A DNA stretch of 33,870 nucleotides from Candidatus Adlerbacteria bacterium GW2011_GWA1_54_10 (GCA_001004665.1 LCRO01000007.1:1-33870); one strand, 5' to 3'. Shown: positions 2,308-31,222, counted from the first letter of the stretch. Notes: a model not told the origin generated them from the sequence alone. Numbers and translations: made by a program.

Positions 2308-4277
2308 GTCAGCTCGAAATCGAGCTGTCGCATAGCCAGGTCGGCCGCAATCAGGCGCACTCGGACGGAATCTCCGAGTGCGTATTTCTTTTTCTTGCGC
2401 GCTCCGACAAGCGCATATTCTTTTTGTGAATAGTTGTAATAATCGTCTCGGAGAGTGCGTACATGCACAAGACCCTCCGCGGCGCTTTCTTTTTCTTCCA
2501 CGTACAGGCCCCACTCCGTCACGCCGGATATCACGCCGTCGAAAGTTTGTCCTATCTTATCCTGCATGTACTCCACCTGCTTATAGCGGACCGACTCGCG
2601 TTCGGCGTCTACGGCCCTTGCCTCCGCCTCGGATGCCTCGATGCACATTTTTTCGAGGTTGGCATATTCTTTGCGGGTTATAGGCTTACCATTCAGGTGT
2701 GATTCCAATATGCGGTGTGCCAGCATGTCTGGGTAGCGGCGTATCGGCGAGGTAAAGTGGGTGTAATACTCGAATGCGAGCCCGAAGTGCCCGATATTTT
2801 TGGTTGAGTATATCGCCTTTGCCATACTGCGGAGAGTTGCCGTGCGTATAAGGTGCTCCTCCGGCTTGCCTTCTATCTGTTTGAGTAATTTTTGAATGTC
2901 TTTAGTGGAGAATTTTTTCTGCTTATTCTTCCCGAATTCATATCCCACGGCGCGGACGAATGTCGCCAGCTCCTCGATGCGGTCGGACTTCGGTTCGTCA
3001 TGTATGCGGTAAAGAAAGATAAGATTCTTTTCCGGCACGTTTTCCGCGAGCTTGGAAATATAGCTTGCCACCTCGCGGTTAGCGAGCAGCATGAACTCTT
3101 CTATCAGTAAATTAGTCCCCATTCTTTCTTTTCGGCGCACGGACAGTGGCTTGCCGTTTTTATCCAGTTCGAAGTGCACCTCACTGTCGCCGAAGTCTAT
3201 TGCCCCTTCTTTTTCTCTATTCTTGCGCAAGATGCGGGCCAGATTTTGTAATATTAAGAGCTCATTTGCGAAGGTCAGACCTTCGCAAGCTTGCGAAGGT
3301 CTGACCTTCGCATCCGCAGTATCGAGCACCATCTGCGCCTCCTCGTATGTAAACCGCCTGTCGGAGCGGATTACGGATTTTTGGAATTTCCGTCCCAGCA
3401 CTTCGGCGTTTTTATTCATACGAAAGACTGCCGAAAAAGCGAGCCGATCCTCCCCTGGCTTTAGCGACGCCCCCCCCGCCGAGATCTCGTGCGGGAGCAT
3501 TGGAATGGTCGCATCGACGAGGTACACACTGGTGCCGCGGCGCCTCGCCTCGTCGTCTATGGCGGTTCCGGGTCGGCAGAAGAAAGTAGCATCGGCAATA
3601 TGCACGCCGATCTCAAACTCGCCGTTCGGCATCGCTACGCAGGAGAGAGCGTCGTCGAAGTCCTTGGCGTCCGCGGGGTCTATGGTAAAGGTCGGCGTGC
3701 CACGAAAGTCAGTTCGGCGCGCCGCCTCGGACTTAAGGATTTGGTCGTGATCGTGCCCCAGAGCCTGTGCCTCGGCCAAAACATCGGTTGGAAAATCCGT
3801 CCGAAAGCCGTGCTCCAGCACTATGGCGTTCATCTCTACCCTGTGCTCGCCCGCCTTGCCTAAGTGTTCTATTACTGTGCCTTTTGCGGCAATGCCGTCA
3901 AAAAAGTCCAGATGTATCAGAACTTTCTCTCCCTCGGCGAAATCGCGCCCTTTTATCTGTATGGGGCGGTAGAATTTAATATCGTCCGGCTGGACAAAGA
4001 CGGCACCTCGAGAACCCTGTTTTAAGGCGTCGCCTTGAATAATCGTTCCAACAAAATCTTCTTTCGCGCGCGTTATGATTTTTTTGACTTTTCCTTTGGG
4101 ACGGGGAAAAAGCGCCGCAAGTTCCACTTCCACCGTATCGCCGTTAAGAGCGCCCCCCAGGTCATCAGTCCGGATTTCGATGTCTTCTTTATCTTTCTCC
4201 CACGCTACATAACCCACCGCCTTTCGCGTGAGCTCTATGATGCCGGTTATGTGTTTTTTGCCCTTGATATTGCGCAT
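2304..4277 (-). CDS. rnr: Ribonuclease R (RNB + S1 domains)
   Basis: FTIDPADAKDFDDALS catalytic motif, LIEEFMLLAN, HFTSPIRRYPD and a C-terminal S1 domain. Confidence 0.95.
   Translation of the reverse strand: MRNIKGKKHITGIIELTRKAVGYVAWEKDKEDIEIRTDDLGGALNGDTVEVELAALFPRPKGKVKKIITRAKEDFVGTIIQGDALKQGSRGAVFVQPDDIKFYRPIQIKGRDFAEGEKVLIHLDFFDGIAAKGTVIEHLGKAGEHRVEMNAIVLEHGFRTDFPTDVLAEAQALGHDHDQILKSEAARRTDFRGTPTFTIDPADAKDFDDALSCVAMPNGEFEIGVHIADATFFCRPGTAIDDEARRRGTSVYLVDATIPMLPHEISAGGASLKPGEDRLAFSAVFRMNKNAEVLGRKFQKSVIRSDRRFTYEEAQMVLDTADAKVRPSQACEGLTFANELLILQNLARILRKNREKEGAIDFGDSEVHFELDKNGKPLSVRRKERMGTNLLIEEFMLLANREVASYISKLAENVPEKNLIFLYRIHDEPKSDRIEELATFVRAVGYEFGKNKQKKFSTKDIQKLLKQIEGKPEEHLIRTATLRSMAKAIYSTKNIGHFGLAFEYYTHFTSPIRRYPDMLAHRILESHLNGKPITRKEYANLEKMCIEASEAEARAVDAERESVRYKQVEYMQDKIGQTFDGVISGVTEWGLYVEEKESAAEGLVHVRTLRDDYYNYSQKEYALVGARKKKKYALGDSVRVRLIAADLAMRQLDFELT
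3267..3312. repeat. Perfect 46-bp palindrome (inverted REP-like doublet) in frame inside rnr
   Basis: TGCGAAGGTCAGACCTTCGCAAGCTTGCGAAGGTCTGACCTTCGCA equals its own reverse complement. Each half is itself a hairpin. Confidence 0.95.
3996..4038 (-). repeat. REP-like element in frame inside rnr; homologous to 15376-15420 in rpoD
   Basis: Minus strand TCAAGGCGACGCCTTAAAACA matches rpoD TCAAGGCGACACCTTAAAACA at 20 of 21 nt. Confidence 0.8.
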
Positions 4278-4306
4278 TTTACCATATTCGTGCTACAGTG
4301 TCGCGC

Positions 4307-4684
4307 GTGCTTACCATCCGTTTAACCCGTGTCGGCAAAAAGAAGGACGCATCTTTCCGCGTTATTGTCGTGGACTCGAAGAAAAAGGTGAAGGCCGGAA
4401 ATTATTTGGAAATGCTCGGCTCCTACGACCCGCGCGTTAACAAAGCGGATATCAAGGGCGAGCGCGTAAAGCACTGGTTATCGCACGGGGCCAAGACAAG
4501 CGACACGGTGCATAATTTGCTGATCTCGCAAAAAGTAATTGAAGGGAAGAAAATAAACGTATTGCCGAGGAAGACGGTTCCCAAGCTCGAAGAGCCAAAA
4601 TCCAAAGCCGAAGAGCCTAAAGCAGATGCTACTGTTACTACGGAGGTTGCAGAAGCGGCATCTGCTGATACAATTCAGGAGTAA
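4307..4684 (+). CDS. rpsP: 30S ribosomal protein S16
   Basis: MLTIRLTRVGKKKDASFRVIVVDS...YLEMLGSYDP. GTG 4307 is preferred over 4298 by family N-terminus. Low-complexity C-terminal tail. Confidence 0.95.
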   Translation: MLTIRLTRVGKKKDASFRVIVVDSKKKVKAGNYLEMLGSYDPRVNKADIKGERVKHWLSHGAKTSDTVHNLLISQKVIEGKKINVLPRKTVPKLEEPKSKAEEPKADATVTTEVAEAASADTIQE

Positions 4685-4707
4685 TTATATAAAATTAATA
4701 TACCGAT

Positions 4708-5064
4708 ATGGCAGAACAAGATCAGGATTTTTTGGAGTTTGTCGTTAAAGGGCTTGTTGATCATCCGGAAAGCATCAAAATCAGCCGCGTTGTGGATGAA
4801 ATGGGCGTGCTTTTGACCCTCGATCTCAATGCCGAGGACATGGGCAAGGTTATAGGCCGCAGTGGCAACACGGCGAAGGCCATCCGCACGCTTTTGCGCG
4901 TAGTGGGAATGAAGAACAATGCGCGCGTCAACCTTAAGATAAACGAGCCCGAGGGCGGCACGCGCGGTTCTGCGGATACCGGATGGGACGGCACGCATGA
5001 GGCGCCCGCCTCTCCCGCGATGAAGTCCGTCGACGAGGCGATGGAGGACCTCTCCAAGTTTTAA
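4708..5064 (+). CDS. khpA: KH-domain RNA-binding protein (KhpA/YlqC family)
   Basis: EDMGKVIGRSGNTAKAIRTLL GxxG KH motif. Conserved position after rpsP. Confidence 0.9.
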   Translation: MAEQDQDFLEFVVKGLVDHPESIKISRVVDEMGVLLTLDLNAEDMGKVIGRSGNTAKAIRTLLRVVGMKNNARVNLKINEPEGGTRGSADTGWDGTHEAPASPAMKSVDEAMEDLSKF

Positions 5065-5179
5065 GCGAAGCAAAAACCAAGTTTGAGAGAATGTTGGTAG
5101 GCGCGACGGCGCCGGACATAGAAAAATTTTCAGCAGAAAATTTTTTGCATTCGGTGCAAACTTGGTTTTTTGCGAAGCG
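5064..5179 (+). repeat. ~115-bp structured repeat, copy 1
   Basis: Terminal inverted arms AAAAACCAAGTTTG/CAAACTTGGTTTTT and an inner hairpin. Aligns to the reverse complement of 20968-21081. Confidence 0.9.
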
Positions 5180-5182
5180 TGT

Positions 5183-5842
5183 ATGAATTTCCATGTAATA
5201 ACGCTTTTTCCGGAGGTTATCGAGGCGTATGCTAATGTCTCGATTTTGGGGCGCGCTCAAAAAGAAAAAAAGATCAAAGTGATTGTGCATCAACTGCGCG
5301 ATTTTGCCGGAAATAAATGGGGCAAGGTGGACGAGAGGCCTTATGGCGGCGGCCCAGGCATGGTCTTGCGTGCGGAGCCTGTAATAAAAGCGGTGCAAAA
5401 GATACTAAAAACTAAAAATCCAAAACTGAAGACTAGGATTATTATCACTTCGGCTGGAGGGAAACCCTTGACCAATGCATACGCAAAGATCCTCGCAAAA
5501 AAACATCAAAATATAATTATAGTGTGCGGGCGATACGAGGGTATAGATGCGCGCGCGAAAAAAGTACTAAAAGCGGATGAGGTCTCGGCCGGACCCTACA
5601 TTTTGACCGGAGGCGAGCTACCGGCGCTCGCCATAGTGGACGCCGCCGCGCGGCAGATACCGGGCGTCCTCGGCAAATTCGAGTCGCTTGAGGAGGGCAG
5701 GGTCGCCAGCCACGACGTTTATACACGTCCGGAGATTCTTAAAGTAAAAGGGAAGTCGTATAGAGTCCCGAAGGTTTTGCTTTCGGGCCATCATGCCAAA
5801 ATAAACGCTCTGCGGCAGAAAAGGCGAAGCGCTCAAAAATGA
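5183..5842 (+). CDS. trmD: tRNA (guanine37-N1)-methyltransferase
   Basis: MNFHVITLFPE, VDERPYGGGPGMVL, CGRYEGIDAR, YILTGGELPA. Start set at ATG 5183. Confidence 0.95.
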   Translation: MNFHVITLFPEVIEAYANVSILGRAQKEKKIKVIVHQLRDFAGNKWGKVDERPYGGGPGMVLRAEPVIKAVQKILKTKNPKLKTRIIITSAGGKPLTNAYAKILAKKHQNIIIVCGRYEGIDARAKKVLKADEVSAGPYILTGGELPALAIVDAAARQIPGVLGKFESLEEGRVASHDVYTRPEILKVKGKSYRVPKVLLSGHHAKINALRQKRRSAQK

Positions 5843-6462
5843 GCAGACTGCCCCCAAAATGGTCCTCGGAGTGGAAAAGGCGTGAGACAGAAATAAAGGG
5901 CCGCCTCGATGAATTTTCAAGAGTTCCGGTATCGGAACATTTTTACGAGCTGTGCTTCTGCATTCTAACGCCGCAATCCAAAGCCCGACATGCCGAGCGG
6001 GTGGTCTGTGAGCTAAAGTGCGACAAATTTTATGAGCGAGGATTCGACCCGACTCCGTATCTTAGGAATCCGAAAAATTACATCCGCTTTCACAATACAA
6101 AGTCCAAGAGGCTTCTTCGGGTCCGAGCTGTTTTTCCTAAAATTGCGGCGAAAATCCACAATTCAGATTCGTCGGTTCTTTTGCGCAGGGAACTTATTGA
6201 ATTGATCCCGGGATTCGGAATGAAAGAGAGCTCGCACTTTTTGCGCAACATTGGCGTGCACGGGCTTGCTATCATTGACCGCCATGTCGCGAAGCACTTG
6301 AAGCAGTTGGGGCTAATACCCAAAATTCCTAAAACAATCTCCAAAAAGCAGTATCTGGAAATAGAAAAAAAATGGCACTCATTCGCAAAAAAAGTCGGCA
6401 TCTCGCTCGACGAACTCGACCTTCTTTTTTGGTCCATGGAGACCGGAGAGGTGAGAAAATAA
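5839..6462 (+). CDS. ogg: 8-oxoguanine N-glycosylase/AP lyase (HhH, archaeal/Thermotoga Ogg-like)
   Basis: ELCFCILTPQS, IRFHNTK, HhH motif GFGMKESSHFLRNIG, AIIDRHV and ELDLLFWSMETG. Confidence 0.85.
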   Translation: MSRLPPKWSSEWKRRETEIKGRLDEFSRVPVSEHFYELCFCILTPQSKARHAERVVCELKCDKFYERGFDPTPYLRNPKNYIRFHNTKSKRLLRVRAVFPKIAAKIHNSDSSVLLRRELIELIPGFGMKESSHFLRNIGVHGLAIIDRHVAKHLKQLGLIPKIPKTISKKQYLEIEKKWHSFAKKVGISLDELDLLFWSMETGEVRK

Positions 6463-6479
6463 GCTTGGGGACAGGGGAG

Positions 6480-6507
6480 TTGCGCGGGAAAGGGGATCTG
6501 ATACACT
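6480..6507 (+). promoter_or_regulatory. Putative sigma70 promoter for rpoBC
   Basis: TTGCGC (6480-6485), 16 bp, then TACACT (6502-6507) with a TG extension. Confidence 0.5.
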
Positions 6508-6530
6508 ATCCGACGAAACCAACGGGCCGT

Positions 6531-6559
6531 GCCTTTCGTAGCTTTAGCGAAGGAGGGGC
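6531..6559. repeat. Short imperfect palindrome (REP-like) in the rpoBC leader
   Basis: CCTTTCG-TAGCTTTAG-CGAAGG hairpin. Confidence 0.55.
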
Positions 6560-6713
6560 ATAACGAATGAGTATCGAGAAGGAGGTTTCGATACGAAATA
6601 ATAGTGGTACCAAAGGCCACCTGAAATTCAGCAATCTGGAACAGGGGCGCTTTATGCGCTCGCTCTTGTTGTGTTTTTAGCCGATATCCCACTTAACCAT
6701 TAATTAAACCGCC

Positions 6714-13571
<6,858 letters not shown>

Positions 13572-13618
13572 ATCGCCACCATTCAGACGTATTGTAAAGT
13601 TAGTGTAAAATAACAGGG

Positions 13619-15241
13619 ATGGATCCTGTAGTGCAGAAAATAAAAGAGAAACTTAATATAGCGGACGTTATAGGACAATATGTGCCTTTGCGTCGCGTCG
13701 GCCGCAACTGGACCGCAAAGTGTCCCTTCCACAAGGAGCGCACGCCGAGCTTCCATGTCTCGCCGGAGCGGGGAACCTATATGTGTTTTGGCTGTGGGGA
13801 GAAGGGCGACGTTTTTTCTTTTGTTCAAAAAATGGACGGACTCGATTTTCCTACTGCTTTAAAGCAGTTGGCCGAGAAAGCGGGAGTGAAGCTGGATAGG
13901 CTCTCTCCGCAAGATTCGACCTTGCAGAGAGAAAAAGAGGAAAGACTCCACGAAGCGTGCGAAGCGGCTGCCAAATTTTTTGAATCGGAACTTAAAAAAA
14001 GAAAGGACGTACTTGGATATATAAAGACCCGCGGTGTTACTCTGGAGACGGCGGCGGTGTGGCGACTGGGGTACGCGCCGGCGGATTGGGAGCAGTTGTC
14101 GCGGCATTTGATGGCGACAGGCTTTGCAGCGGACGAATTAGTTCAAGCTGGTCTCGCAGTAAAGTCCGAAAAAACCCCCGGGACGGTCTTCGACAGATTC
14201 CGCGGGCGAATAATGTTCCCGATCTTTGACGCGGCAAATCAGGTAATAGCCTTTTCGGGGCGTTTTTTTGAAAATATTCCAAGCGCTAAAGGAGCAGAGC
14301 CGGCAAAATATGTAAACTCACCCGAGACGGAGCTGTTCAGGAAGTCGAGAGTTCTGTACGGATACGACAGGGCATTCAAGGCGATACGCAAAGCGGATTG
14401 CATTTTGCTTGTGGAGGGGCAGTTCGACCTCATTCTTGCGCATCAGTCAGGTATTCCGTTTGCCGTGGCGCTCTCCGGAACCGCGCTGACTGGAGAACAT
14501 TTGGCGCGTCTGGGGAGGCTTTCCAAGCGCCTGGTGCTCGCTCTAGACGCCGATGCGGCGGGCCTCCGAGCCGGCCTTAAATCCGCATTGATGGCGCTTG
14601 CGGCGGGATTTGACGTAAAAGTCCCTGTCTTTCCGGCGGGAAAGGACCCTGCGGATCTCGCGCGCGAAAACCCGGAGCTGTTAAAAGCCGCCGTGCGTAC
14701 AAGCAAGACTGCAGTCGAGTTCTTTCTTAACTCGCTGCAATTCTCCGCGCGTGACGGGCGCGGATATAAAAAAATAGTAGAGGCGCAAGTATTGCCTCTC
14801 ATCGCCGTCATGGAAAGCAGGATAGACCAGGATCATTTTATCGGAGTCGTCGCGCACGCGATCGACGTTTCGCCGGAGGCAGTGCGCTCGGAAGTCATTA
14901 AACTTGAGGGCTTGCCCGGCATCGCGGGAGCGATGCCGGGTTCACCGGAAATTCACGAAAAAAGTGCAGAATCTTTGCTTACCCCGCTCCAGAAAAAAGC
15001 GGGAATGCTGATATTCAAATTCGGCATAGATTCCAAAGCCGTTCGCAGGCTTTCCGAAGCGCTTGGCGAAGAGAAACTCCGCGAACTTGAGAGATCGCTT
15101 GAGCCGCATGCAGAGGAACTCCGGTTCCGCTTCGACAGGGAGCTCGGCGACCATACGAGCGAGGCTCGGATAACGGAAGACATCATAGTTGATATTATTC
15201 GGCTGATGGAGCGCGAACGTGTCAAAATGAAGTTTACGTGA
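13619..15241 (+). CDS. dnaG: DNA primase
   Basis: CHC2 zinc finger CPFHKERTPSF...CFGC, DRFRGRIMFPI, KYVNSPET, and TOPRIM VEGQFD and DAD. Confidence 0.95.
   Translation: MDPVVQKIKEKLNIADVIGQYVPLRRVGRNWTAKCPFHKERTPSFHVSPERGTYMCFGCGEKGDVFSFVQKMDGLDFPTALKQLAEKAGVKLDRLSPQDSTLQREKEERLHEACEAAAKFFESELKKRKDVLGYIKTRGVTLETAAVWRLGYAPADWEQLSRHLMATGFAADELVQAGLAVKSEKTPGTVFDRFRGRIMFPIFDAANQVIAFSGRFFENIPSAKGAEPAKYVNSPETELFRKSRVLYGYDRAFKAIRKADCILLVEGQFDLILAHQSGIPFAVALSGTALTGEHLARLGRLSKRLVLALDADAAGLRAGLKSALMALAAGFDVKVPVFPAGKDPADLARENPELLKAAVRTSKTAVEFFLNSLQFSARDGRGYKKIVEAQVLPLIAVMESRIDQDHFIGVVAHAIDVSPEAVRSEVIKLEGLPGIAGAMPGSPEIHEKSAESLLTPLQKKAGMLIFKFGIDSKAVRRLSEALGEEKLRELERSLEPHAEELRFRFDRELGDHTSEARITEDIIVDIIRLMERERVKMKFT
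13902..13932. repeat. Imperfect hairpin in the dnaG interdomain linker
   Basis: TCTCTCCGCAAG-ATTCGAC-CTTGCAGAGAGA: 12-bp stem with 1 mismatch. Core AAGA-TTCGA-CCTT resembles AAGG-N5-CCTT. Confidence 0.55.
14915..14940. repeat. Perfect 11-bp-stem hairpin in frame in the dnaG C-terminal linker
   Basis: CCCGGCATCGC-GGGA-GCGATGCCGGG, encoding PGIAGAMPG. Confidence 0.7.
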
Positions 15242-15258: not shown

Positions 15259-16527
15259 ATGGCTAGCAAGAAAAAAGCCAAGAACGAGACGAAGCGGCGC
15301 TGCAAAGGCGCCGTGAAAGCTAATAAATTCCGCGCGAAGGCGGCCAAGCGGAGGGCCAAACTTGCGCCTAAAACCTCAAGGCGACACCTTAAAACAAAGG
15401 CTCCCCAAAGTGTCGCCTTTAAATCCAAGTCACCGGCCGTATCTGCAAAAATAGTCAAGAAGATCGAAGAACAAAACAAAAAAGCCGAAGCTCTTATGGT
15501 ACGCGGGCGCGCACGCGGCTTTGTCACATATGACGAAATTCTAAAGAGCTTCCCGAACATAGAGGAGGACGTTTTGTTTCTTGAAGATCTGTACGAAAAA
15601 TTTTCCACCGCACACATAGATGTGCTCGAGGGTGGCGGTATGCTCGAGGTTATGGAGGAACCCGTGGAGAAGGGCTATACGCGCAGTGACAGCCAGTACG
15701 ACTCTATACAAATGTACCTTCGCGAGATAGGGAAGTATCCTCTGCTCTCGGCGCAGGAAGAGCGCGACCTGGCCAGGCGCATATCGCTGGGCGACAGGGA
15801 GGCGCGCAATCTGCTTGCACGCGCGAACCTGCGACTCGTCGTGTCGATCGCCAAAAAATACGTAGGGCGTTCGCCGGACCTTACCTTACTCGACCTAATA
15901 CAAGAAGGGAATCTGGGTCTCTTTAAAGCCGTGGACAAATTCGACTTCACCAAAGGATTTAAATTTTCGACCTATGCCACTTGGTGGATACGGCAGGCCA
16001 TAACGCGCGCGCTCGCGGACCAGAGCCGCACCATACGCATTCCTGTGCATATGGTCGAAACTATCGCCAAATACAAGCAGGTCTCGCGCCGGCTGGCGCA
16101 GGACCTCGGGCGTGACCCCTTGCCCGAGGAAATAGCGCTTGAAATGGGGCTCGACGTGGAGAAGGTTTACCAGATAGAAAAAATAGACCAGGACACGGTG
16201 TCACTCGAATCGCCGGTCGGCTCGGACGACGACGACGGCAAGTCGGTGCTCGGCGATTTTATAAAAGACGACAAGATACTCTCGCCCGACCAGGAGGTGG
16301 CTCGGCGCATATTAGCGGACCAGCTGCGCGAGATTTTGGATGAATTGTCCCCGAAGGAAAGGGAGATTTTGAAACTGCGGCACGGACTGGAAGACGGCAT
16401 TTATCACACGCTCGAGGAGGTGGGAAAAAAATTCGGCGTTACGCGCGAGCGCATTCGTCAAATAGAGGCCAAGGCGCTCGAGCGCATCCGCACGCACGAA
16501 AAAGCTAAGCGCTTGAGAAGCTATTAG
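15259..16527 (+). CDS. rpoD: Primary sigma70 factor with basic N-terminal extension
   Basis: Region 1.1 remnant ([12 protein letters not shown]), [37 protein letters not shown] and [13 protein letters not shown]. Confidence 0.95.
15376..15420 (+). repeat. REP-like inverted doublet in frame in the rpoD N-terminus
   Basis: AAGGCGACAC...GTGTCGCCTT inverted arms. Core AGGCGACACCT differs by 1 nt from the RAYT-flanking AGGTGACACCT. Confidence 0.8.
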
Positions 16528-16531: not shown

Positions 16532-16563
16532 ATAAACCCCGCCTATTGGCGGGGTTTATTTTT
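16532..16563 (+). terminator. Intrinsic terminator after rpoD
   Basis: ATAAACCCCGCC-TATT-GGCGGGGTTTAT followed by a T run. Confidence 0.85.
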
Positions 16564-16647
16564 GCACCGGATAATGAGAGCGATGTATATGGATATCGCA
16601 AGCAGGCCGGCCAGGTACAAGAATGGATGGTCAAGCCAGTACTCCAC
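16543..16647 (-). CDS. Small single-TM protein, 34 aa (not in ORF track)
   Basis: GTG...TAG encodes MEYWLDHPFLYLAGLLAISIYIALIIRCKNKPRQ. AGGAGGAGG lies 5 nt upstream, and TACAAT is at 16682-16677. Confidence 0.65.
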   Translation of the reverse strand: MEYWLDHPFLYLAGLLAISIYIALIIRCKNKPRQ

Positions 16648-16713
16648 TGCGGCCTCCTCCTACCGACTCTGCCGGCATTGTATACCCGCGTTCGCGTAGG
16701 GCATACTGGGTGG

Positions 16714-17559
16714 GTGGGGACAACCAATTTACCGATCAAACACTGGAGCCACTCATCTTTGATGGCGTTTCTGCGCAATCCGCTGGCGTGGTATAAGCGC
16801 TATGTTGAGCTGGTTTACGATATACCGAGCAGTCCGTCGTCCATAGTTGGTCGCGCGGGGCATGTTGCGCTTCAGCACTATTATTCTGGAATAAAAAAAG
16901 AAGACACAATCGCACTTGGACTCGAATATATGCGCGGCGTGCCGGATTTCGAGATAAATTTCGGTGTCGCAAAGACCCGCGCGGCAAAGCGTAAAAAGCG
17001 CGAGCAGATGGAGCGCGAGTACATTCAGGCGATAAATTTTTATCTGGAGCGTCCGCCCCGCTACAACGTGCTCGGAGTCGAGGTCAAGGCCCTCGCAGAA
17101 GTTGCAGGATTGCCTCTGCCTCTTAAGGCGGTTTCGGACCTGGTGGTGCGCTCGCGGGTAGACAAGCGAGCGGTCGACATCGTGGACCACAAGTTCGTGG
17201 ACCACTTCAGCGGGCGCGGGGTGGCCAAATCACTCTTTGTCATACAAGCAATCTTTAATTATTACACCGTGCGGGAGTTCTTTAAAAAGCCGGTGAGACG
17301 CTTTATCGTGCAGGAGTGCAAGAAGAGCCGCAACAAGTACGGCGGGCGGCAGCTACGGCGCTATATAATTGACTTCCGCGATTGCAAAGATGAGTTCGCG
17401 CTCTTCCACAGGCTTATAAAAGATGCGACGCAAGAGATAGGTCGCGAGCGACTTTACCTGCCCAATCCGTCGGACATGTTCGAAGGGGAGAACAGTTTTG
17501 ATATTTACCGTCTAGGGCTGGTGGGGCAGAAAATCGAGGAAGACCTCGTTGACAGCTAA
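16714..17559 (+). CDS. PD-(D/E)XK nuclease-like protein (RecB/Cas4-like fold)
   Basis: HWSHSSL...NP, GRAGHVALQHY, VLGVE, AVSDLVV...IVDHK and Q..Y motifs. Start reassigned to GTG 16714 (TTGTAT-18-CATACT-6-GTG). Confidence 0.7.
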   Translation: MGTTNLPIKHWSHSSLMAFLRNPLAWYKRYVELVYDIPSSPSSIVGRAGHVALQHYYSGIKKEDTIALGLEYMRGVPDFEINFGVAKTRAAKRKKREQMEREYIQAINFYLERPPRYNVLGVEVKALAEVAGLPLPLKAVSDLVVRSRVDKRAVDIVDHKFVDHFSGRGVAKSLFVIQAIFNYYTVREFFKKPVRRFIVQECKKSRNKYGGRQLRRYIIDFRDCKDEFALFHRLIKDATQEIGRERLYLPNPSDMFEGENSFDIYRLGLVGQKIEEDLVDS

Positions 17560-18221
17560 GTGTCCCGCCACCGTACCAAATTTAATTTGGTACGGTGGCG
17601 GGCGGGGAGCACCACGCTCTCGCCGCCCATCGTAAGGAAGGTATACGGAGTACCTTGGCCGCCCGCGGCGACGGCCTCCTGATACTCGGTCGCGACTTTT
17701 TGCGCGAATTTGCCGCTCTGCAGACATTCGTTGAAAGCGCCAACATCAAGGCCTATCTCTTGCGCTATGACTGGCAGCTGATTCAAATCAAGGCCGTTGT
17801 TAGAAGGGGTCACTTCGTAGACTTTGTCTATATAGCGCCAGAAGGCCGCGTCGCCGCCCTGGTCTGCCGCGCACTCGGAAGCTTGCGCCTCCTGCGGCGC
17901 CTTGGAGTGTATCTGCGTAAGAGGGAAGTGGCGGAAAATCCATGCGACATTGCCCTTATCCCCGTAGTAGTCCATTATCTGGTGCATTGTTACGTGGAAA
18001 TCCTTACAGAAGCTACACTCAAGGTCGGCGTACTCGACTACCTTAACCGCGGCATTCGGATTGCCCAAAATATGGTCCTGCCCGGGCGTATATGCGCGCA
18101 CACTCTGCGGGTTGCCTCCGGTGTTCCCACCGGTGCCGCTCTTGCCGGCCCAAAAAACTGCGCCTGCGATAAGTGCTCCCGCGACCACGATAACTACAGG
18201 CAAAACATAATTTTGGTTCAT
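17556..18221 (-). CDS. DsbA/thioredoxin-like oxidoreductase, C-terminus replaced by palindrome
   Basis: N-terminal TM, DHILGNPNA, EYADLECSFC (CxxC), FRHFPL and GTP cis-Pro loop. The last 13-15 codons come from a palindrome. Confidence 0.85.
   Translation of the reverse strand: MNQNYVLPVVIVVAGALIAGAVFWAGKSGTGGNTGGNPQSVRAYTPGQDHILGNPNAAVKVVEYADLECSFCKDFHVTMHQIMDYYGDKGNVAWIFRHFPLTQIHSKAPQEAQASECAADQGGDAAFWRYIDKVYEVTPSNNGLDLNQLPVIAQEIGLDVGAFNECLQSGKFAQKVATEYQEAVAAGGQGTPYTFLTMGGESVVLPARHRTKLNLVRWRDT
17564..17602. repeat. Perfect 19-bp-arm palindrome
   Basis: CCCGCCACCGTACCAAATT-T-AATTTGGTACGGTGGCGGG. Confidence 0.95.
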
Positions 18222-18863: not shown

Positions 18864-18864
18864 A

Positions 18865-20130: not shown

Positions 20131-20140
20131 GGCGCATTTT

Positions 20141-20155: not shown

Positions 20156-20157
20156 AT

Positions 20158-20964: not shown

Positions 20965-20967
20965 TCG

Positions 20968-21081: not shown

Positions 21082-21087
21082 ATCAGC

Positions 21088-22080: not shown

Positions 22081-22081
22081 A

Positions 22082-24928: not shown

Positions 24929-25012
24929 GTTCGGGAATAGTAATTATAGGCCGCGATGCGCCGAAGTGGCTGTGCATAACGAACGACAAAATTAAATCAC
25001 CTTCAGGGCAAC

Positions 25013-25040
25013 TTGACTCATGAAAACAGTGTGCTACAAT
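25013..25040 (+). promoter_or_regulatory. Sigma70 promoter for the DUF1360-like gene
   Basis: TTGACT-16-TACAAT with a TG extension. Confidence 0.55.
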
Positions 25041-25052
25041 TTCGTTCATTAT

Positions 25053-25499
25053 ATGTACCGGCCCAAAGAAGACCAGATTTTTTGGAATTTCCTGTTTTCC
25101 GCGCTTTTTACGGTCGTGCTTGCCACAGCAATGTGGATTCTTTATCGCGCGCAAGGCGGTTTCCCAAGCTCGGTCCCGGTTTTTGACGCCGTTCTTATGT
25201 CTTTTGCCGCTTTCCGTATCACGCGTCTTATAATTTATGACAAAATAACCCTTTGGTTCCGAAATTTTTTTCCGGAGGGCGGGGGACTGCGCGGTACGAT
25301 ATGCGACCTTCTTGCGTGTCCATGGTGCGTCGGCTTTTGGGGTGCACTCGCGGTGTCGTGGTTTTACTTTATGTTCCCGTGGGCGTGGTACGTTATTCTT
25401 TTTTTGGCGCTCGCCGGCATTGGATCCCTACTGCAAGTAACAGCGAACCTTATCGGGTGGAAGGCCGAGCAGCTTAAGCGCACTACTGAAAGATTATAG
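25053..25499 (+). CDS. Membrane protein, DUF1360-like
   Basis: AAFRITRLIIYDKIT and LLACPWCVGFW. Start at ATG 25053, because 25020 lies within the promoter. Confidence 0.75.
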   Translation: MYRPKEDQIFWNFLFSALFTVVLATAMWILYRAQGGFPSSVPVFDAVLMSFAAFRITRLIIYDKITLWFRNFFPEGGGLRGTICDLLACPWCVGFWGALAVSWFYFMFPWAWYVILFLALAGIGSLLQVTANLIGWKAEQLKRTTERL

Positions 25500-25923
25500 G
25501 TATGACAAGCTCCTCATCGTATTCCGGCAACCCGGAAGGGTTGTCTCTCTTCAGCACCACGTTTCCTTTGGAGCCTTCTGGCTGTGGAGGAAAGGATATT
25601 TGGAGATAAAATGGCACGAATTCCGCAGTCATCCATTCCCCCTGCGCTTGCGCCGGAGCCTGCGCTATAACCTCGCCTGCGACGTTGCGTATCTCGATGG
25701 GGAAACTTGCCTCGAAGTACCAGTTGCCGCGTGCCTTTCCGGATATGATGAGCGGCGGAAAAACGGCGTCTCCGATGCGCGGCGTATCAACCTCTATGCG
25801 GTCCGGTTTTTGAGCCCTTTCGTCCACCGTTGGCGCTTTTACCGGGTCGGGCAGGATAATAAGCGCCGCCGCTCCCGCGGCTATCACCACGAAAAGCGCG
25901 ATTATAATTCCCCAACGGTTCAT
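25483..25923 (-). CDS. Membrane-anchored Gmad2 Ig-like domain protein
   Basis: N-terminal TM, ISGKARGNWYFEASFPI, GEWMT..FVPF and DNPSGLPE. Confidence 0.75.
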   Translation of the reverse strand: MNRWGIIIALFVVIAAGAAALIILPDPVKAPTVDERAQKPDRIEVDTPRIGDAVFPPLIISGKARGNWYFEASFPIEIRNVAGEVIAQAPAQAQGEWMTAEFVPFYLQISFPPQPEGSKGNVVLKRDNPSGLPEYDEELVIPIIFQ

Positions 25924-25956
25924 ACGGATAGTAATCTCGATGATACCACATGAAAG

Positions 25957-26715
25957 CTATGGTCGTGAGGAGGCGCGGAGAATATCTTTTATGAGAGCTT
26001 CACTCTCTCTCGGACCGAAAACCGCATGCGTTTTGACGCCGCTCTCGAGGACTACTGCATCGTTGCCGCCTTCCTCGAGTGCGTCTCCGACATAAAGCAT
26101 GTCGGTGACCTCAATGCCCGTAAGTTCCGCGAGCCGCTTTATACCATAAGCCTTGGTAAGACCCTTGCGAGTAATGTCTATTGAAGTCAGCCCGCCGATG
26201 CCGACGGAAAAGTCCGGAAGTTTCTTGACTAGCGAGTTGCGAATACGGACCCTCGTTTGTTTTTTTGGATCCCACTTTTGCTTTTCGTCTATTGGGGCTC
26301 CCTGTCCGAGGCCGGAGAAAGTTATTTGCGCGCCGCGGTCTTCTATCCGCTCTCCCCATAGACCGCCTCGGAGCTCCATGCCGTTTTCTTCAAGAGCCTC
26401 TTTTAGCACCGCGAAAATTTTCTGTTTTTCCTGTTCCGAAAAGCAGTGATCGTACTGCGGCTTCCACCCTTCTCGGTACACATAGCATTGCGCCGCGTTG
26501 GTGGGAAATATGTACAGCCGCTCGAGTGGCGCGTCCTCGGGGAGTGCGGGCAAAAACTGCTTTTCGAACTGCTGGAATCCGGCTCCGGACATTACTGCGA
26601 CCGGCATTTTTTTTAGCAAGTCGGCTATGAGCAGGCCCATTTCGGCGCTCATACGCCATTTGCTCTCCGCAAGCGTACCGTCGAGGTCGAAGGCGATTAG
26701 TTTTGGCTTAACCAT
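25957..26715 (-). CDS. HAD-IIB hydrolase, phosphomannomutase-like
   Basis: FDLDGTL, IEDRGAQITFSGLG, IGGLTSIDIT and YVGDALEEGGND. Confidence 0.8.
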   Translation of the reverse strand: MVKPKLIAFDLDGTLAESKWRMSAEMGLLIADLLKKMPVAVMSGAGFQQFEKQFLPALPEDAPLERLYIFPTNAAQCYVYREGWKPQYDHCFSEQEKQKIFAVLKEALEENGMELRGGLWGERIEDRGAQITFSGLGQGAPIDEKQKWDPKKQTRVRIRNSLVKKLPDFSVGIGGLTSIDITRKGLTKAYGIKRLAELTGIEVTDMLYVGDALEEGGNDAVVLESGVKTHAVFGPRESEALIKDILRASSRP

Positions 26716-26739
26716 GGAGGACGGTCCTTGATAAAGTAA

Positions 26740-28662
26740 TTATTGCAAATTCTCCGGCAGGAGGATATCCATCAATTTTTTCAGAGAAACTGCGGCGACT
26801 GCGACCACAGTATCCGCCGCGCCATAGTAAATTAAAAGTTTGTCTCCGCGCAACACTGCTCCGCAGGAGAAGACGGCGTTGCGCACCTGTCCCACGCGCT
26901 CATACTCCTCTGTAGGCTCCAAAATGGTGTCCACGCTGCGCGAAACGATTAGTGAAGGATTCTTCAGGTCGAGCAAGGCGGCACCAAGCCGGTAAGTGCC
27001 CGTTTTCGAAACTCCGTGATATATCATAAGCCAGCCTTTTTTTGTCTTGATAGGCGGACCGGCTATTCCTATCTTGCGGCTATCCCACATCGCCGGCCTC
27101 GGTCCCATTATCTCGATGCATCTCGATACTCGCGATTTTTTGAAATCGAGCACATCAAGATAGTCCGCGCATAACTGCGGGTCTATGCGGTGCAGAAGCA
27201 TGTATTGGCCGGATATTTTTTCGGGAAAGAGGCACGCATCCTTGTCCTGCACGAGGTCGGGCGTTATCAAAACCGGCCGTTCCCATTTGTCGAAACGTCT
27301 CGCGACGAAGTCCTTGATGGAAATTGAGGTTAGCGCCGCGCGCCACGGATTTTTTCCGTCAAAAGCCGTGTAGCAAAGATAAAGAGTGTTGCCTATGCGC
27401 GTAAGGCGCGGGTCTTCGCAGCCGGAGCTCGCGCCGGGGACTTTTTGGAGCTCGAATTCCTCGCGGGGAATATAGGCCGGCTCATTATGGCGGTAATTTA
27501 TTTTTATACCGTTCCTGCTTGAGGCGTAGCCAAGCACCGAAGTGTTGTCCTCGCCTTGCGCGCGGTAAAGGAGATGAATTTCGCCATCGATATCCACCGC
27601 CGCCGCGTTAAAAACAGCCTTGCTTTCCCATTTGTGCCCGCCTATCGGCCCCAGTATCGGATTTTCCTTTGCGCGGCATGCCAGATCCACGCGCCGCTCC
27701 GGTATCATTGCAGAGAGCAGGTCGCGCAAATTTAGCGATGCTTTTGCACAAACTGTGTCCGCCGCGCCGTAATAAAGGTCTATCCTGCCATTTTTGTCCA
27801 AAGTTGCGCCGGAAGGGAAGACGATATTCGGCACCGCGCCGTAGCGCTCGTAAATTTCCTGAGGGACTATGATAGGGCCCTTTGTCCTGCCGACTATCTG
27901 ACGCGGTTCTTTAAGATCGAGCAAAAGTGCCTCGATACCGAAGACACGCTCGCCGCCGCCGAAGTAGTTGTGTATATAGGAATAGAAAAGGAGCCACCCT
28001 TCCGGAGTCTTGAGCGGCACCGAGCCGACCTCGACATGGTCGTGCTCAAAGCGCAGGGGATTAATGGAGTGTTCCGATATTTCTGAGTGCCATTTTTCCC
28101 AAAACGAAAGATCCCAGAGCTCTTCTATCCTGTCGCACTGCGCGATTGCTATGCGCGCGGGTGGCTCATCGGTGTGTGCGGTTAAAATAAACGTGATCTT
28201 TCCGTTTACACGCTCGGGGAATAGCGCTGCCGCCTTGGCGTTGAAAGAGGTTATCAAGTGCTTGCTCTCTATCGTCTCCAGATCTTTCGATACCGCGCAG
28301 GCGACTTTTATGTTCTGTGGGCCGAATGGCATACCGCCGAGCGCGGTGTAGAAAATATAGTACTTGCCCTCGAAAAATGTCACGCGCGGATCCTCGCAGC
28401 CGTACTTGTCCCACGGCTCTGTCGGCACGATGAACTGCCGCCGGCTCTGGAAGTGCTCGCCGTCGAGCGAGAGCGCCTTGCCTATGGTCGAGATGCCCGC
28501 CGGCGTCATAAGCGCGTCAGGCCGGCCCTGTGCGCGATAGAGCAGGTGAGTTATGGTGCCTTTTTTGATTGGCGATGGGTTGAAGGTCCCGCGCGCCTCC
28601 CAGTGCCGCTCGTCCGCGGGCGCTATCAGAGGATTATGTTCGCTCCTGCGTACAACGTACAT
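26740..28662 (-). CDS. Tandem two-domain GH130-like glycoside phosphorylase/hydrolase
   Basis: Two repeats of NP..., FN.., GCEDPR, YTA and YYGAAD. The real start is ATG 28662 (MYVVRRSEHNP); the ORF-track extension overlaps the upstream gene. Confidence 0.85.
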   Translation of the reverse strand: MYVVRRSEHNPLIAPADERHWEARGTFNPSPIKKGTITHLLYRAQGRPDALMTPAGISTIGKALSLDGEHFQSRRQFIVPTEPWDKYGCEDPRVTFFEGKYYIFYTALGGMPFGPQNIKVACAVSKDLETIESKHLITSFNAKAAALFPERVNGKITFILTAHTDEPPARIAIAQCDRIEELWDLSFWEKWHSEISEHSINPLRFEHDHVEVGSVPLKTPEGWLLFYSYIHNYFGGGERVFGIEALLLDLKEPRQIVGRTKGPIIVPQEIYERYGAVPNIVFPSGATLDKNGRIDLYYGAADTVCAKASLNLRDLLSAMIPERRVDLACRAKENPILGPIGGHKWESKAVFNAAAVDIDGEIHLLYRAQGEDNTSVLGYASSRNGIKINYRHNEPAYIPREEFELQKVPGASSGCEDPRLTRIGNTLYLCYTAFDGKNPWRAALTSISIKDFVARRFDKWERPVLITPDLVQDKDACLFPEKISGQYMLLHRIDPQLCADYLDVLDFKKSRVSRCIEIMGPRPAMWDSRKIGIAGPPIKTKKGWLMIYHGVSKTGTYRLGAALLDLKNPSLIVSRSVDTILEPTEEYERVGQVRNAVFSCGAVLRGDKLLIYYGAADTVVAVAAVSLKKLMDILLPENLQ

Positions 28663-28664
28663 AG

Positions 28665-29732
28665 TTATAGTGTAACCGGTTCCAAAACGGCGTGTTCGTG
28701 AGATTGAAGTTTGAGGAGGAACTCGCGCAAGGAGACTCTCGCGGCGGCGACATGCTTGTAGGCGTACACGACGCCCGGCTTCCAGTCGTTCTCGTACCAC
28801 TCTTCGGGCTCCAATACCGGATAATTTGAGCGATAAAGAACTTTTGTCGGATCGCCGAGATCGAGCAACATCGCGCCGACCTTGTATCCGGGACCGCCCG
28901 CAGGGTTCATCCCGTGATAAAAAAGTAGCCACCCTGCGGGGGTTTTTACGGGCGGCGCGCCCGCGCCGCGCACAAAGGCGTCCCATTGCCCGCTCCGGCC
29001 GCCGCGGTTGTTGTTGCTTTTTATCGGCCACTCCCGCAGGCACTCCAAGTCCTCTATATAATCGATCATTATACTCGGAGTCAGCGCGTGCAGTATGGCG
29101 AATTTGCCGTTTATTTTTTCGGGGAAGAGGACCCAGTTCTTATGCATTTCATTCTTGGGCGAGAGCGGCAGGGGCGGAGGCCAGTCCCATACGCGCGCGT
29201 TAATCGCTCCTAGCGGGAGTGAGGTCAGTGCGAGCCGGAGTGACTGCCAGCTCTCGAACATCCCGAAAGAAAGATATGCGCGGCCCTCCTCTTCTATTTT
29301 GACCGCGCGCGGGTCCTCGAAGCCGCCCCATCCGCCGCCCGAGGCGTAAACATCCGGACTGTACGCACGCGGTCCATGGCGGCGCCTCGCGGCCGACTCA
29401 AGCAGGATCTCCGACGGATCGAGCGCGAGAGTACGCCCTCCAAAATTTATCCCATCGCCGCTTGTCGCATGCCCTATGCGCGAGATGCCATCGCGCCCGA
29501 GCGCGCGATAAAAAAGGTGCACGCGCTCATCGTGCACAATCGCCGCTGGATTGAATACCGCCTCGCTCTCCCACCAATTTTGCGGGTTAGGGGAGAGAAT
29601 GGGATTGCCGCGGTGCCGCGCAAGCGCAAGGGGTCGGTGCCTAAGGGAAAGCCAGTAAAAAAACAGGGAGAGTGCGGCAAGCAGAAGTCCCGCCAGTGCA
29701 AAAAAAAGGACTGGCAAGTCAGGCGCGCCCAT
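28665..29732 (-). CDS. Membrane-anchored GH130-like protein with apparent C-terminal internal deletion
   Basis: N-terminal TM, AVFNPAA, GFEDPRA, KNWVLFPEKING and LFYHG. It lacks the SGA...YYG..D segment. Confidence 0.8.
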   Translation of the reverse strand: MGAPDLPVLFFALAGLLLAALSLFFYWLSLRHRPLALARHRGNPILSPNPQNWWESEAVFNPAAIVHDERVHLFYRALGRDGISRIGHATSGDGINFGGRTLALDPSEILLESAARRRHGPRAYSPDVYASGGGWGGFEDPRAVKIEEEGRAYLSFGMFESWQSLRLALTSLPLGAINARVWDWPPPLPLSPKNEMHKNWVLFPEKINGKFAILHALTPSIMIDYIEDLECLREWPIKSNNNRGGRSGQWDAFVRGAGAPPVKTPAGWLLFYHGMNPAGGPGYKVGAMLLDLGDPTKVLYRSNYPVLEPEEWYENDWKPGVVYAYKHVAAARVSLREFLLKLQSHEHAVLEPVTL

Positions 29733-30072
29733 AGCGGTCCTCTAGGCGGGTGATATCAGCCTCGTCAAAATTGCCAAACGCTATCTCCAGTATGCGCAAC
29801 CCCTCGGGGCTGGCCGCGACGCGGTGCCGCGCGCCGCGTTTGCTAAAAAAGTTTTCTCCCGCATGCGCATCATGCTCCGCGCCCTCTATGGTAATAACGC
29901 CGGAGCCGCCGAGAACGCGCCAAAACTCGTCGCGGACCTCGTGAGTCTGGAGAGAAATAGCCTCGTCTGGATTTACCGTAACCAATTTGACCGTTGTCTG
30001 CTCATTGAGGGTGAAGCGCTCAAAATTTCCCCACGGTCTAACTTCCTTCTCATAATTAGAGAGACCCTCCAT
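29719..30072 (-). CDS. Cupin, mannose-6-phosphate isomerase type II C-terminal-like
   Basis: RPWGNF, ISLQTH..RDEFW, HRV, ILEIAFGNFDEADITRLEDRYGR. Start set at ATG 30072. Confidence 0.85.
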   Translation of the reverse strand: MEGLSNYEKEVRPWGNFERFTLNEQTTVKLVTVNPDEAISLQTHEVRDEFWRVLGGSGVITIEGAEHDAHAGENFFSKRGARHRVAASPEGLRILEIAFGNFDEADITRLEDRYGRA

Positions 30073-30110
30073 GACTTTATTGTAGTGCATAAAATGTTTA
30101 TACTGGCACT

Positions 30111-30470
30111 GTGTCCACAGGCAAAAAAGTTATCGCGGTGTCGGGAGGTTTTGACCCGTTACATATGGGTCACATACGGTTCTTTGAGGGGCCAATATAC
30201 TCTATGACGAGCTTATGGTGATACTCAACAACGACAAATGGCTCCGCGAGAAGAAGAATTCATCTTTATGCCGCAAGCAGAGCGCGCCGAAATCATCGCG
30301 GCGCTTCGCGCCGTAGATCGAATGATACTAACCGACCACGCCGAGGACGATGAGGATAGGAAAGCATATGCCGAATGTTGCAGGAGGTCCGGCCGCATAT
30401 CTTTGCCAACGGCGGGACCGTCCGCGGCAATATCTCCGAGCATGCGCTTTGTCGCCGATAACTTAAAATA
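30111..30470 (+). pseudogene. Frameshifted cytidylyltransferase-family (HxGH) gene remnant
   Basis: KVIAVSGGFDPLHMGHIR, DELMVILNNDKWL, FMPQAERAEII..LRAVD and VRPHIFANGG fall in shifting frames. The 3' end stops at the RAYT-flanking palindrome. Confidence 0.85.
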
Positions 30471-30488
30471 ATCGCGAGTATCTAGAGG

Positions 30489-30515
30489 TTGTCTAGAGGT
30501 GACACCTCTAGACAA
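30489..30515. repeat. Palindrome at the 3' end of the RAYT gene
   Basis: TTGTCTAGAGGTG-A-CACCTCTAGACAA, with an extra half copy TCTAGAGGT at 30481. It contains the transposase stop codon. Confidence 0.95.
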
Positions 30516-31185
30516 GCGTTGGGGTGCGCGTACGGTAGAATTCCTGAGCATTACAAAGCATTTCAGTAAAATCGGGATTTGGATAAAATTCTCGCAACAT
30601 ATTACCGGTTATCGCACCCTCCGGCCGATTTTGGCCAAAAAAATCAATAAGGCTGGAATATTGATATTGAAACAATTTATTTTCAATTTTTTTTAATTCG
30701 CCGCTTCCGGTTTTCCATTGAGGTTCGAAAAGCTCTATCGGATTAAACAGCACATATGGCACGACTTGCTTGAAGTAAATATTGTCGGAAATATGCTTTG
30801 AGCGAAAAGGCTTTACAAACAAATTACCCACCCTTGCCCTTTTTACATTGAAGTACATCGTATAACCAGTGCTGAGCTTACGCATGAATTTTGTTATTCC
30901 TCCTTCTGTCAAGGCTTTTAAAATCAAATGAAAATGAGATGGCATCAGGCAGTAGGCTCCTATTGCAACAATAAGCTCTTTTCTGGGTAAGGATAATATT
31001 TCTTCGTGAGTTATGTCGCGATCAAAAGAACTGCGCTCGACAGGGGCAACATTATTGGCCAGATAAAGCATCTGTGTAAAACGCAAATAATCACTTGTTG
31101 TCTCAAAGACTTTTCTTTTTTCGACTCCGCGGCTATAGCAATGGAACCATTCATTAGGAGCAAGGGGAATACGCCGGTAGGTCAC
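30508..31185 (-). mobile_element. Y1 HUH transposase, REP-associated (RAYT)-like
   Basis: FHCYSRGVEKR, YCLMPSHFHL (HUH), YFN...GNLF..PF, YVLFNP (catalytic Tyr) and YSS. Visibly more AT-rich than its neighbours. Confidence 0.9.
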
Positions 31186-31200
31186 AAGGTAAGTATACCC

Positions 31201-31222
31201 TGTCTAGAGGTGACACCTCTAG
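31201..31222. repeat. Palindrome at the 5' end of the RAYT gene
   Basis: TGTCTAGAGGTGACACCTCTAG is identical to 30490-30511. Confidence 0.95.

Follow-up and report, generated by a model that had tools for sequence, protein, structure and literature searches.

The stretch of DNA analysed here (the window, 33,870 nucleotides (nt), bases 1-33870 of contig C7) contains a gene for a predicted REP-associated tyrosine transposase (RAYT; REP, repetitive extragenic palindromic element) set between two copies of one short hairpin, and further hairpins of this kind lie in frame inside its genes for RNase R and the sigma-70 factor (Table 1). The genome to which the window belongs (596,207 bases in 18 contigs, 54% G+C, completeness 96%, contamination 4.5%) is of the Patescibacteria type, about 0.6 Mb in size, and hosts a REP/REPIN-RAYT system, a REPIN (REP doublet forming hairpins) being an inverted pair of REPs. 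The gene names given in the original prediction for this DNA agree with Pfam for RNase R/II, DnaG, sigma-70 and a weak IS200-like Y1 transposase, and a scan of the window with Rfam at gathering thresholds returns no family. Genome-wide, rough calls of the longest open reading frames (ORFs) span about 90% of the sequence. Throughout, G000 denotes the genome studied here and G001 and so on its relatives, C-numbers are contigs of G000, and L-numbers are loci fetched from relatives.

Table 1 Genes and hairpins of the window, with positions counted from its first base
Feature	Position	Strand	Description and support
RNase R/II gene (rnr)	2304-4277	-	Pfam
Family A inverted doublet (REPIN-like) inside rnr	3266-3312		RNase R residues 322-338; perfect 46-nt palindrome
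Family F doublet inside rnr, one arm decayed	3996-4038		RNase R residues 80-94; perfect 13-nt arm AAGGCGTCGCCTT at 4024-4036
DnaG gene (dnaG)	13619-15241		Pfam
Imperfect, bulged 11-bp hairpin in dnaG linker	13902-13932		DnaG residues 95-105; judged outside the system
Sigma-70 gene (rpoD)	15259-16527	+	Pfam
Family F doublet inside rpoD	15378-15419		Residues 40-54, in the Lys-rich N-terminal tail before region 1.1
Family E1 hairpin	30489-30515		13-bp stem, 1-nt loop; overlaps the last RAYT codons at the gene 3' end; fold -13 kcal/mol, z -6.7
Gene for predicted RAYT-like HUH/Y1 transposase	30508-31185	-	225 residues; one of three paralogues in the genome; Pfam, NCBIfam, profile, fold
Family E1 hairpin	31204-31222		9-bp stem; 19 nt upstream of the RAYT start codon

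RAYT genes and their hairpin families

The product of ORF 30508-31185 is, judged by its sequence profile and modelled fold, a predicted RAYT-like HUH/Y1 protein. Searched alone against the PDB sequences with phmmer, it gives no match. A profile built from 13 aligned RAYT sequences, in which His84 and His86 (the HUH motif), Tyr144 and Asn148 are invariant, places E. coli TnpArep (4er8) at the top of the PDB sequences (E 0.055), with the HUH and Tyr motifs aligned. The AlphaFold model of the protein (mean predicted local distance difference test score, pLDDT, 89) has the RAYT-REP complex 4er8_A as its best Foldseek match (E 1.8e-5, TM score 0.66 on the target); this is the sole match below E 0.001, and the TnpA proteins of IS608 and ISDra2 stand lower in the list. 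Using tblastn, we find three paralogues in the genome, namely the window gene on C7 (100%), C3:83636-84289 (38% identity, E 2e-43) and C10:5063-5644 (39%, E 2e-43), the latter two of which exceed the Pfam Y1_Tnp cut-off of 23 bits (23.6 and 38.2 bits). Homologues are present in 18 of 30 relatives. Proteins homologous to the window RAYT carry source names of Paceibacterota, Patescibacteria or Kaiserbacteria, and one is called 'REP element-mobilizing transposase RayT'.

Each of the three paralogues has a cognate hairpin on both sides. The window gene is bracketed, as had been claimed, by palindromes, which are the CTAGAGGTGACACCTCTAG hairpins of family E1; a partial E1 copy (TCTAGAGGT, 30484-30492) stands just ahead of the hairpin at the 3' end, and a third E1 copy lies inside the Mur ligase gene (C8:24350-24368), within a 13-residue insertion. 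The C3 gene sits between copies of TTGCGAAGGTC-W-GACCTTCGCAA (family A) and the C10 gene between copies of tGTAGCAAGGTCTCGCCTTGCTACa (family D). With paralogues only 38-39% identical and hairpins that all differ, there is a single RAYT copy per hairpin family, unlike the situation of an insertion sequence. The same arrangement is seen in the relatives, where 8 of 11 fetched RAYT loci have the same hairpin on both sides, with a 1-nt loop, an AGG-N5-CCT core and a species-specific stem; one further locus has a one-sided hairpin, one has unrelated palindromes and one has no palindrome of at least 8 bp. The core is therefore truly characteristic of this RAYT clade. The hairpins with the AGG core around the RAYTs have stems of 9-13 bp and a 1-nt loop.

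Two further observations concern these loci. A family D hairpin lies in frame inside the C10 RAYT gene itself (C10:5463-5481), encoding EQGETLLS, and a cognate hairpin is likewise found inside the RAYT gene at the G003 and G018 loci (L169 1651-1671; L170 1902-1924). A second inverted repeat, with 14-nt arms and 11 nt spacing (GCCGAGGGGCCCCG / CGGGACCCCTCGGC, window 31227-31265), adjoins the upstream hairpin of the window RAYT.

Alongside the three RAYTs, the genome contains at least six hairpin families, with further copies, single or as inverted doublets, scattered genome-wide, about half of them in housekeeping genes, always in frame and with no stops. All cognate hairpins have intragenic copies: A in rnr and a glycosyltransferase gene, D in the genes for UvrB, LigA and GatC, and E1 in the Mur ligase gene. 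The 19-nt core of family A (at most one mismatch) occurs nine times in the genome, three of these flanking the C3 RAYT, and is absent from all 30 relatives examined. A GTAG tag is present in family D (tGTAGCAAGG) and in the hairpin flanking a G014 RAYT (L166), and not in families A, B, C, E1, E2 or F. The idea of one palindrome family tied to the window RAYT had to be given up, because it is the C3 RAYT whose flanks match the rnr doublet.

The abundance of the AGG-N5-CCT motif depends on how strictly it is defined. In its loose form it occurs 147 times, compared with 101.5±10.7 in 20 dinucleotide shuffles (maximum 122) and 120.4±10.3 in 20 synonymous-codon shuffles (maximum 143), so that this form is barely enriched, whereas the palindromic subset lies far above the shuffled controls (41 versus 6.65±2.8 with a palindromic inner part, and 22 versus 0.25 with 7-bp stems). 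Within ORF interiors and against 40 synonymous shuffles, the counts are 26 versus 5.7±2.7 for the palindromic subset and 12 versus 0.3 (maximum 1) for the 7-bp stems; protein composition and codon usage therefore do not account for the intragenic palindromes. The dispersed, mainly extragenic distribution expected of REPs is not what we find, since 12 of the 22 perfect hairpins with 7-bp stems lie in ORF interiors; per base, such hairpins are about four times denser outside these interiors (10 in 17% of the genome versus 12 in 83%).

In-frame copies in rnr, rpoD and other housekeeping genes

The first palindrome in rnr (3267-3312), listed in the original prediction, is upheld; it is perfect over 46 nt and reads TTGCGAAGGTC-A-GACCTTCGCAA followed by TGCGAAGGTC-T-GACCTTCGCA. 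Folded as single-stranded DNA it reaches -27.8 kcal/mol (z -10.1), matched by none of 200 shuffles. As it consists of two inverted copies of the family A hairpin, it is cognate to the C3 RAYT and not to the window RAYT. Where 16 of 19 orthologues have 4 codons, G000 has 15, a net gain of 11 residues, and G009, G007 and G026 have their own, different insertions at or beside this spot. In the RNase R model (mean pLDDT 78), residues 325-333, with pLDDT values under 50, link helices 311-320 and 336-356 in the RNB domain; both rnr sites fall in low-confidence loops of the model.

The rnr stretch is also present in public runs labelled as groundwater and soil metagenomes, and no RNA run is listed among those that contain it. 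Logan contigs from four other public DNA runs (three studies) enter the palindrome from both sides and end at it, as pieces 2900-3296 and 3283-3700 and a 46-nt contig 3267-3312, with no bridging piece. As a separate observation, some contigs of runs X2, X4 and X5 return from position 3312 to 3267 across the intervening letters GGCC, and the palindrome is covered at 2-4 times the depth of its flanks, which fits a multi-copy element and perhaps another arrangement in the community. The genome also contains a second rnr of 51% identity on another contig (C17:287-2200) and two copies of gatC (C16:3838-4146 and C5:11589-11921), which may be paralogues or, given the contamination figure, foreign contigs.

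The second site in rnr and the site in rpoD belong to family F, which consists of 42-45-nt doublets with the consensus AAGGCGACNCCTT, a conserved spacer AANACCAGGGCTCNCC and AAGGTGTCGCCTT. A profile of this family finds 13 loci at E <0.01, five of which are its own training copies, and 11 of the 13 lie inside ORFs that are 100 or more codons long. Of the arm-to-arm cells, 95% are paired, with two-sided changes at 3 of 13 pairs, one of which reads AU in five copies and GC in four; in 6 of 11 copies the left arm fails to pair within itself. Because arm-to-arm pairing is kept while pairing within the left arm breaks, the conserved unit is the doublet, not the single hairpin. The geometry of a REPIN, an inverted REP pair at a fixed short distance with mutual pairing, is thus present both in the family A doublet of rnr and in the doublets of family F. 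Hairpins with an AGGCG-W-CGCCT core flank the closest homologues of the window RAYT in G002, G005 and G008 (52-54% identity), and we infer that family F is probably an older product of the window RAYT's lineage.

The copy at 3996-4038 in rnr is recovered by a doublet profile built from nine other copies, none of them from the window (E 9.1e-7), which upholds the site as originally listed; it folds poorly (z +0.39). The corresponding segment is shorter in every one of the 19 orthologues, by 4 to 11 residues, and in the model the peptide of this copy forms the loop between strands 74-81 and 93-97 of the N-terminal domain. The rpoD doublet, likewise upheld, is laid out as AAGGCGACACCTT, 16 nt and AAAGTGTCGCCTT, with 13-nt arms that are 92% complementary; it folds with z -4.95 and matches the doublet profile at E 3e-11, the orthologous G001 copy being among the members of that profile. 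Sigma-70 region 1.1 occupies residues 71-127. A homologous doublet stands at the same place in G001 only, and the 15 other covering orthologues have no doublet and are 4 to 11 residues shorter, from which we read the rpoD doublet as probably going back to a single insertion in an ancestor shared by G000 and G001.

We rejected the proposed fourth site, in dnaG (13902-13932), as an element. Its fold is at chance level (z -2.3, with 6 of 200 shuffles folding equally well), it gives no match to the doublet profile even at E<=100, and its length is that of its orthologues (19 residues versus 18-24 in 15 orthologues of the same genus, none of which has the hairpin). The claim that the sites keep the frame and lie in loops or linkers accordingly holds for the two rnr sites, which fall in model loops, and for the N-terminal tail of rpoD, and falls away for dnaG. 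The expectation of lineage-specific insertion divides in the same manner within the window, with both rnr sites and (shared with G001) rpoD in agreement and dnaG not, and elsewhere the MurA, PheT, GatC and M13 peptidase copies sit in segments of equal length.

Beyond the window, the hosts confirmed with Pfam include proteins of RNA metabolism and transcription (RNase R and sigma-70 themselves, and PNPase), of DNA metabolism (UvrB, UvrD, the NAD-dependent DNA ligase LigA, a pol III delta'-like protein and RecR), tRNA-related proteins (PheT, MnmA, TsaD, TsaE and GatC) and others (MurA, a Mur ligase, a transketolase subunit, M17 and M13 peptidases and two glycosyltransferases). Scored against five sister genomes, the Mur ligase is 13 residues longer than in four of the five and MnmA 13 residues longer than in all five; UvrB gains 15 residues relative to three of the five, UvrD 13 or more (the element is common to G001), TsaE 4 to 12 (same element in G001), RecR 4 to 8 and LigA 2 to 6. 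No net change in length relative to orthologues is found for PheT, which carries a perfect 42-nt doublet of family C, MurA, which carries a 31-nt palindrome of family B, GatC on C16 or the M13 peptidase. The M13 peptidase hairpin (C2:27109-27125) was set aside as a candidate, its segment being conserved and of equal length; it may be a chance occurrence. At the same MurA and PheT codons G003 has its own hairpin, AAGCAAGGTCCGACCTTGCTT, and at the UvrB spot G004 and G009 have other elements. No target-site duplication is seen at the junctions in rnr, MnmA and the Mur ligase gene, which were inspected individually and not as part of a systematic screen.

Several side observations accompany these hosts. 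The element at the UvrB spot in G004 (L183) is an AGG-core hairpin of its own, CTGGAAGGTTTAGCCTTCCAG, within a segment 5 residues longer. The MnmA gene of G000 contains a larger in-frame element (C2:21463-21550, residues 141-172) with 28 extra residues around the hairpin GGCGATTTCTTAGCAAAGAAATCGCC, and its peptide GYGDF-AKKSPEVASP-L-KPP recurs inside a 43-residue UvrB insertion of G009 (L184); the two together look like a further class of palindromic element in coding regions, longer than the first. The pheT gene changes frame at C10:21643-21653, with about 37 residues fewer than the G008 orthologue and no hairpin element seen at the break, which may reflect a frameshift, a deletion or faulty assembly. 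Elsewhere in the window, a perfect 39-nt palindrome (CCCGCCACCGTACCAAATT-T-AATTTGGTACGGTGGCGGG, 17564-17602, with a stem of 19 bp and a loop of 1 nt) is placed between two convergent ORFs, 16546-17559 (+, PD-(D/E)XK nuclease) and 17556-18221 (-), with no AGG core and no repeat noticed elsewhere, and an apparently non-coding intergenic motif, CCATGGAGGACGGTCCT, is common to window 26711-26736 and C6:66900-66925, outside any larger hairpin family.

Origin of the intragenic copies

We put the probability at roughly 0.8 that a RAYT-linked REP/REPIN system places in-frame peptide insertions into the housekeeping genes of this genome. In such a system, the hairpin would fold on single-stranded DNA and be bound by the RAYT, as in the solved structure of the E. 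coli enzyme; the RAYT would then cut beside it and copy or move the element. The two arms of the 42-45-nt doublet pair with each other, so that it behaves as a single unit. Insertions into genes would survive only if the frame is kept and the element lands in a tolerant surface loop or linker, and, as only tolerant loops would accept inserts, the same few loops would gain elements repeatedly across species. The inserts are presumably translated. Their removal at the RNA level was set aside, since all intragenic copies are in frame and lack stops, which would be needless under splicing. Read in different frames and orientations, one and the same element gives unrelated peptides (for family A, AKVRPS, RRSDLR and EGQTF), which argues against a function of the peptides, and they are most likely neutral passengers. 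The core of the original prediction, a REPIN-like system that adds peptides to housekeeping enzymes, is thereby retained, but not its single family or its dnaG member, and some of the copies are neutral in length.

A number of points weigh against this reading. The window RAYT stays below the Pfam cut-off (21.5 bits versus 23 for Y1_Tnp) and far below that of NCBIfam REP_Tyr_transpos (31.3 bits versus 80), against which the paralogues range from 31 to 45 bits. Copies per hairpin family number 3-10, which is few compared with Pseudomonas REPINs. Two of the three valid window sites belong to family F, which is found next to none of the three RAYTs of this genome and whose covariation is a modest test that rests on 11 related copies, some of them orthologous. 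Because the public contigs break at the rnr palindrome, they are unable to show an empty-site allele, and neither such an allele nor an excision product is seen among them. Gene calls outside the window are longest-ORF calls, with the Pfam check covering the named hosts. Finally, the equal-length segments of MurA, PheT, GatC and the M13 peptidase mean that simple insertion is not the explanation there.

These length-neutral copies lead to an alternative that we regard as doubtful, namely that fixed loops of essential proteins serve as landing pads at which one hairpin is swapped for another and the protein length stays unchanged. Its basis is the MurA and PheT codons, which carry different species-specific hairpins in G000 and G003 and whose hairpin-free orthologues are of equal length, and the UvrB spot, with three different elements in three species. 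It would mean either that hairpins are replaced at a pre-existing small palindrome, or that old copies co-evolve in place with the specificity of the RAYT, and, if true, it would amount to cassette exchange within coding sequence and not to simple insertion filtered by selection. For the recurrent use of the same spots, either few loops tolerate inserts, or small existing palindromes attract new elements or are replaced by them.

We consider it improbable that the intragenic palindromes arise or are perfected locally, for example through template switching in imperfect palindromes as the DNA replicates, or spread between similar short hairpins by gene conversion, with the adjacency to RAYTs a separate matter. 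The long perfect palindromes without net length change in MurA and PheT would fit such an origin, as would the PheT orthologues, which encode K/R-S-D-L at this place from AAGTC-N-GAC, a small palindrome resembling the family C core, the MnmA insertion, which follows an ancestral GGCGAC matching the arm of the element, and the lack of a RAYT next to family F in this genome. Local perfecting is, however, unable to make one 23-mer nine times, and loci that are otherwise unrelated share hairpins, identical over 19-23 nt, with one another and with the flanks of the matching RAYT. Clean insertions of 33-45 nt with conserved non-palindromic spacers, together with the matching flanks at 8 of 11 RAYT loci of relatives, likewise point to the RAYT-linked system.

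Still less probable, in our estimate, is that the elements have been recruited for a function in their genes, as pause, processing or stability signals in DNA or mRNA or as peptide loops that alter the enzymes. The hosts are rich in repair and replication proteins and in RNA and tRNA enzymes (RNase R, PNPase, UvrB, UvrD, LigA, pol III delta', PheT, MnmA, TsaD and TsaE), a bias with a parallel in PMC3733652, in the portions of that paper considered here, but most genes of a 0.6-Mb genome are housekeeping genes, so that the bias may be trivial. The same loops are occupied in several species, and the copies common to G000 and G001 have persisted since their split; against this, one element yields unrelated peptides in different frames and orientations, the rnr 3996-4038 copy is decayed in one arm and the UvrD copy is decayed too, and the inserts are missing from most orthologues of the same genus.

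That the sites are chance palindromes or metagenome-assembly artefacts, as the weak enrichment of the loose motif (147 versus 101±11), the chance-level dnaG site and the 4.5% contamination might suggest, is very unlikely overall and already refuted for rnr and rpoD, standing for dnaG alone, since the palindromic subsets exceed every shuffle, elements occupy orthologous places in an independently assembled sister genome, the rnr palindrome appears with its flanks in contigs of four other runs from three studies, and the ORFs are open through every copy.

Relation to known palindromic elements

REPs and REPINs are usually called extragenic, and intragenic copies have been little followed since 2013. 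Here, three RAYTs and several hairpin families are maintained in a 0.6-Mb genome that has hardly any intergenic space, and the cost of keeping the elements is their carriage inside RNase R, sigma-70, UvrB, UvrD, DNA ligase and tRNA-modification and cell-wall enzymes. The genome is a compact natural system for asking how elements persist without neutral landing places, and it allows the study of loops that tolerate 4-15 extra residues and of the co-evolution of hairpin and RAYT specificity. For the annotation and phylogenomics of Patescibacteria, the inserts bring lineage-specific indels into marker genes, rpoD among them. Our literature searches, which did not extend to the supplementary list of intragenic REPs in PMC3733652, returned no relevant work on RAYTs or REPs in Patescibacteria or the Candidate Phyla Radiation. 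As far as these searches reach, what is new is the very small genome and a phylum in which such elements were undescribed, intragenic REPs as such having been known since 2013.

Pseudomonas REPINs occur in hundreds of copies and are extragenic; on these figures, the present elements differ in being few and in many cases intragenic. The excerpts of Bertels and Rainey 2011 (PMC3116915) considered here describe the Pseudomonas REPIN as an inverted REP pair linked to a single-copy, REP-flanked RAYT, with species-specific families, and the present system resembles it in all of these respects, the inverted-REP unit, the single-copy hairpin-flanked RAYT and the species-specific families.

On the protein side, the window RAYT is like E. 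coli TnpArep (4er8) and the TnpA of IS200/IS605 in its predicted fold, and its HUH and Tyr motifs align with those of 4er8. It differs from 4er8 in sequence (14% identity) and in length (225 residues versus 165), with an extra helical C-terminal part in the model. No IS-like multicopy transposon ends are seen in this genome.

We know of no dedicated transposase for the palindromic elements of Rickettsia, whereas the elements described here, of 19-46 nt, lie next to RAYT genes, and the likeness between the two is one of behaviour only. According to the sections considered of a 2024 review (PMC10969869), Rickettsia palindromic elements insert in frame, and those first described are about 150 bp long. 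As far as this review and the portions of PMC3733652 go, the likeness lies in the in-frame position in unrelated housekeeping genes of a reduced genome and in peptides compatible with function. The notion that insertion into coding regions is peculiar to the Rickettsia elements, on which the original prediction had drawn, is outdated, as intragenic REPs were published in 2013 (PMC3733652).

The closest comparison is with these intragenic REPs. In the portions considered, Di Nocera et al. 2013 (PMC3733652) report them from several phyla as GTAG- or CGTC-tagged elements, in frame and single or as dimers, in hosts that include many replication and repair genes (UvrA/B/D, DNA ligase), tRNA synthetases and RNA enzymes; they propose that the insertions sit in flexible linkers or loops, and they describe REP-flanked tyrosine transposase genes specific for each REP family. 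Set beside this part of the paper, the elements described here are alike in being short in-frame hairpins in known genes, single or paired, with similar classes of host, and unlike in that the host genome is ultra-small and of the Patescibacteria type, GTAG is found in family D only and each family has 3-10 copies. About half of the perfect copies in this genome and 11 of the 13 family F loci lie in ORFs.

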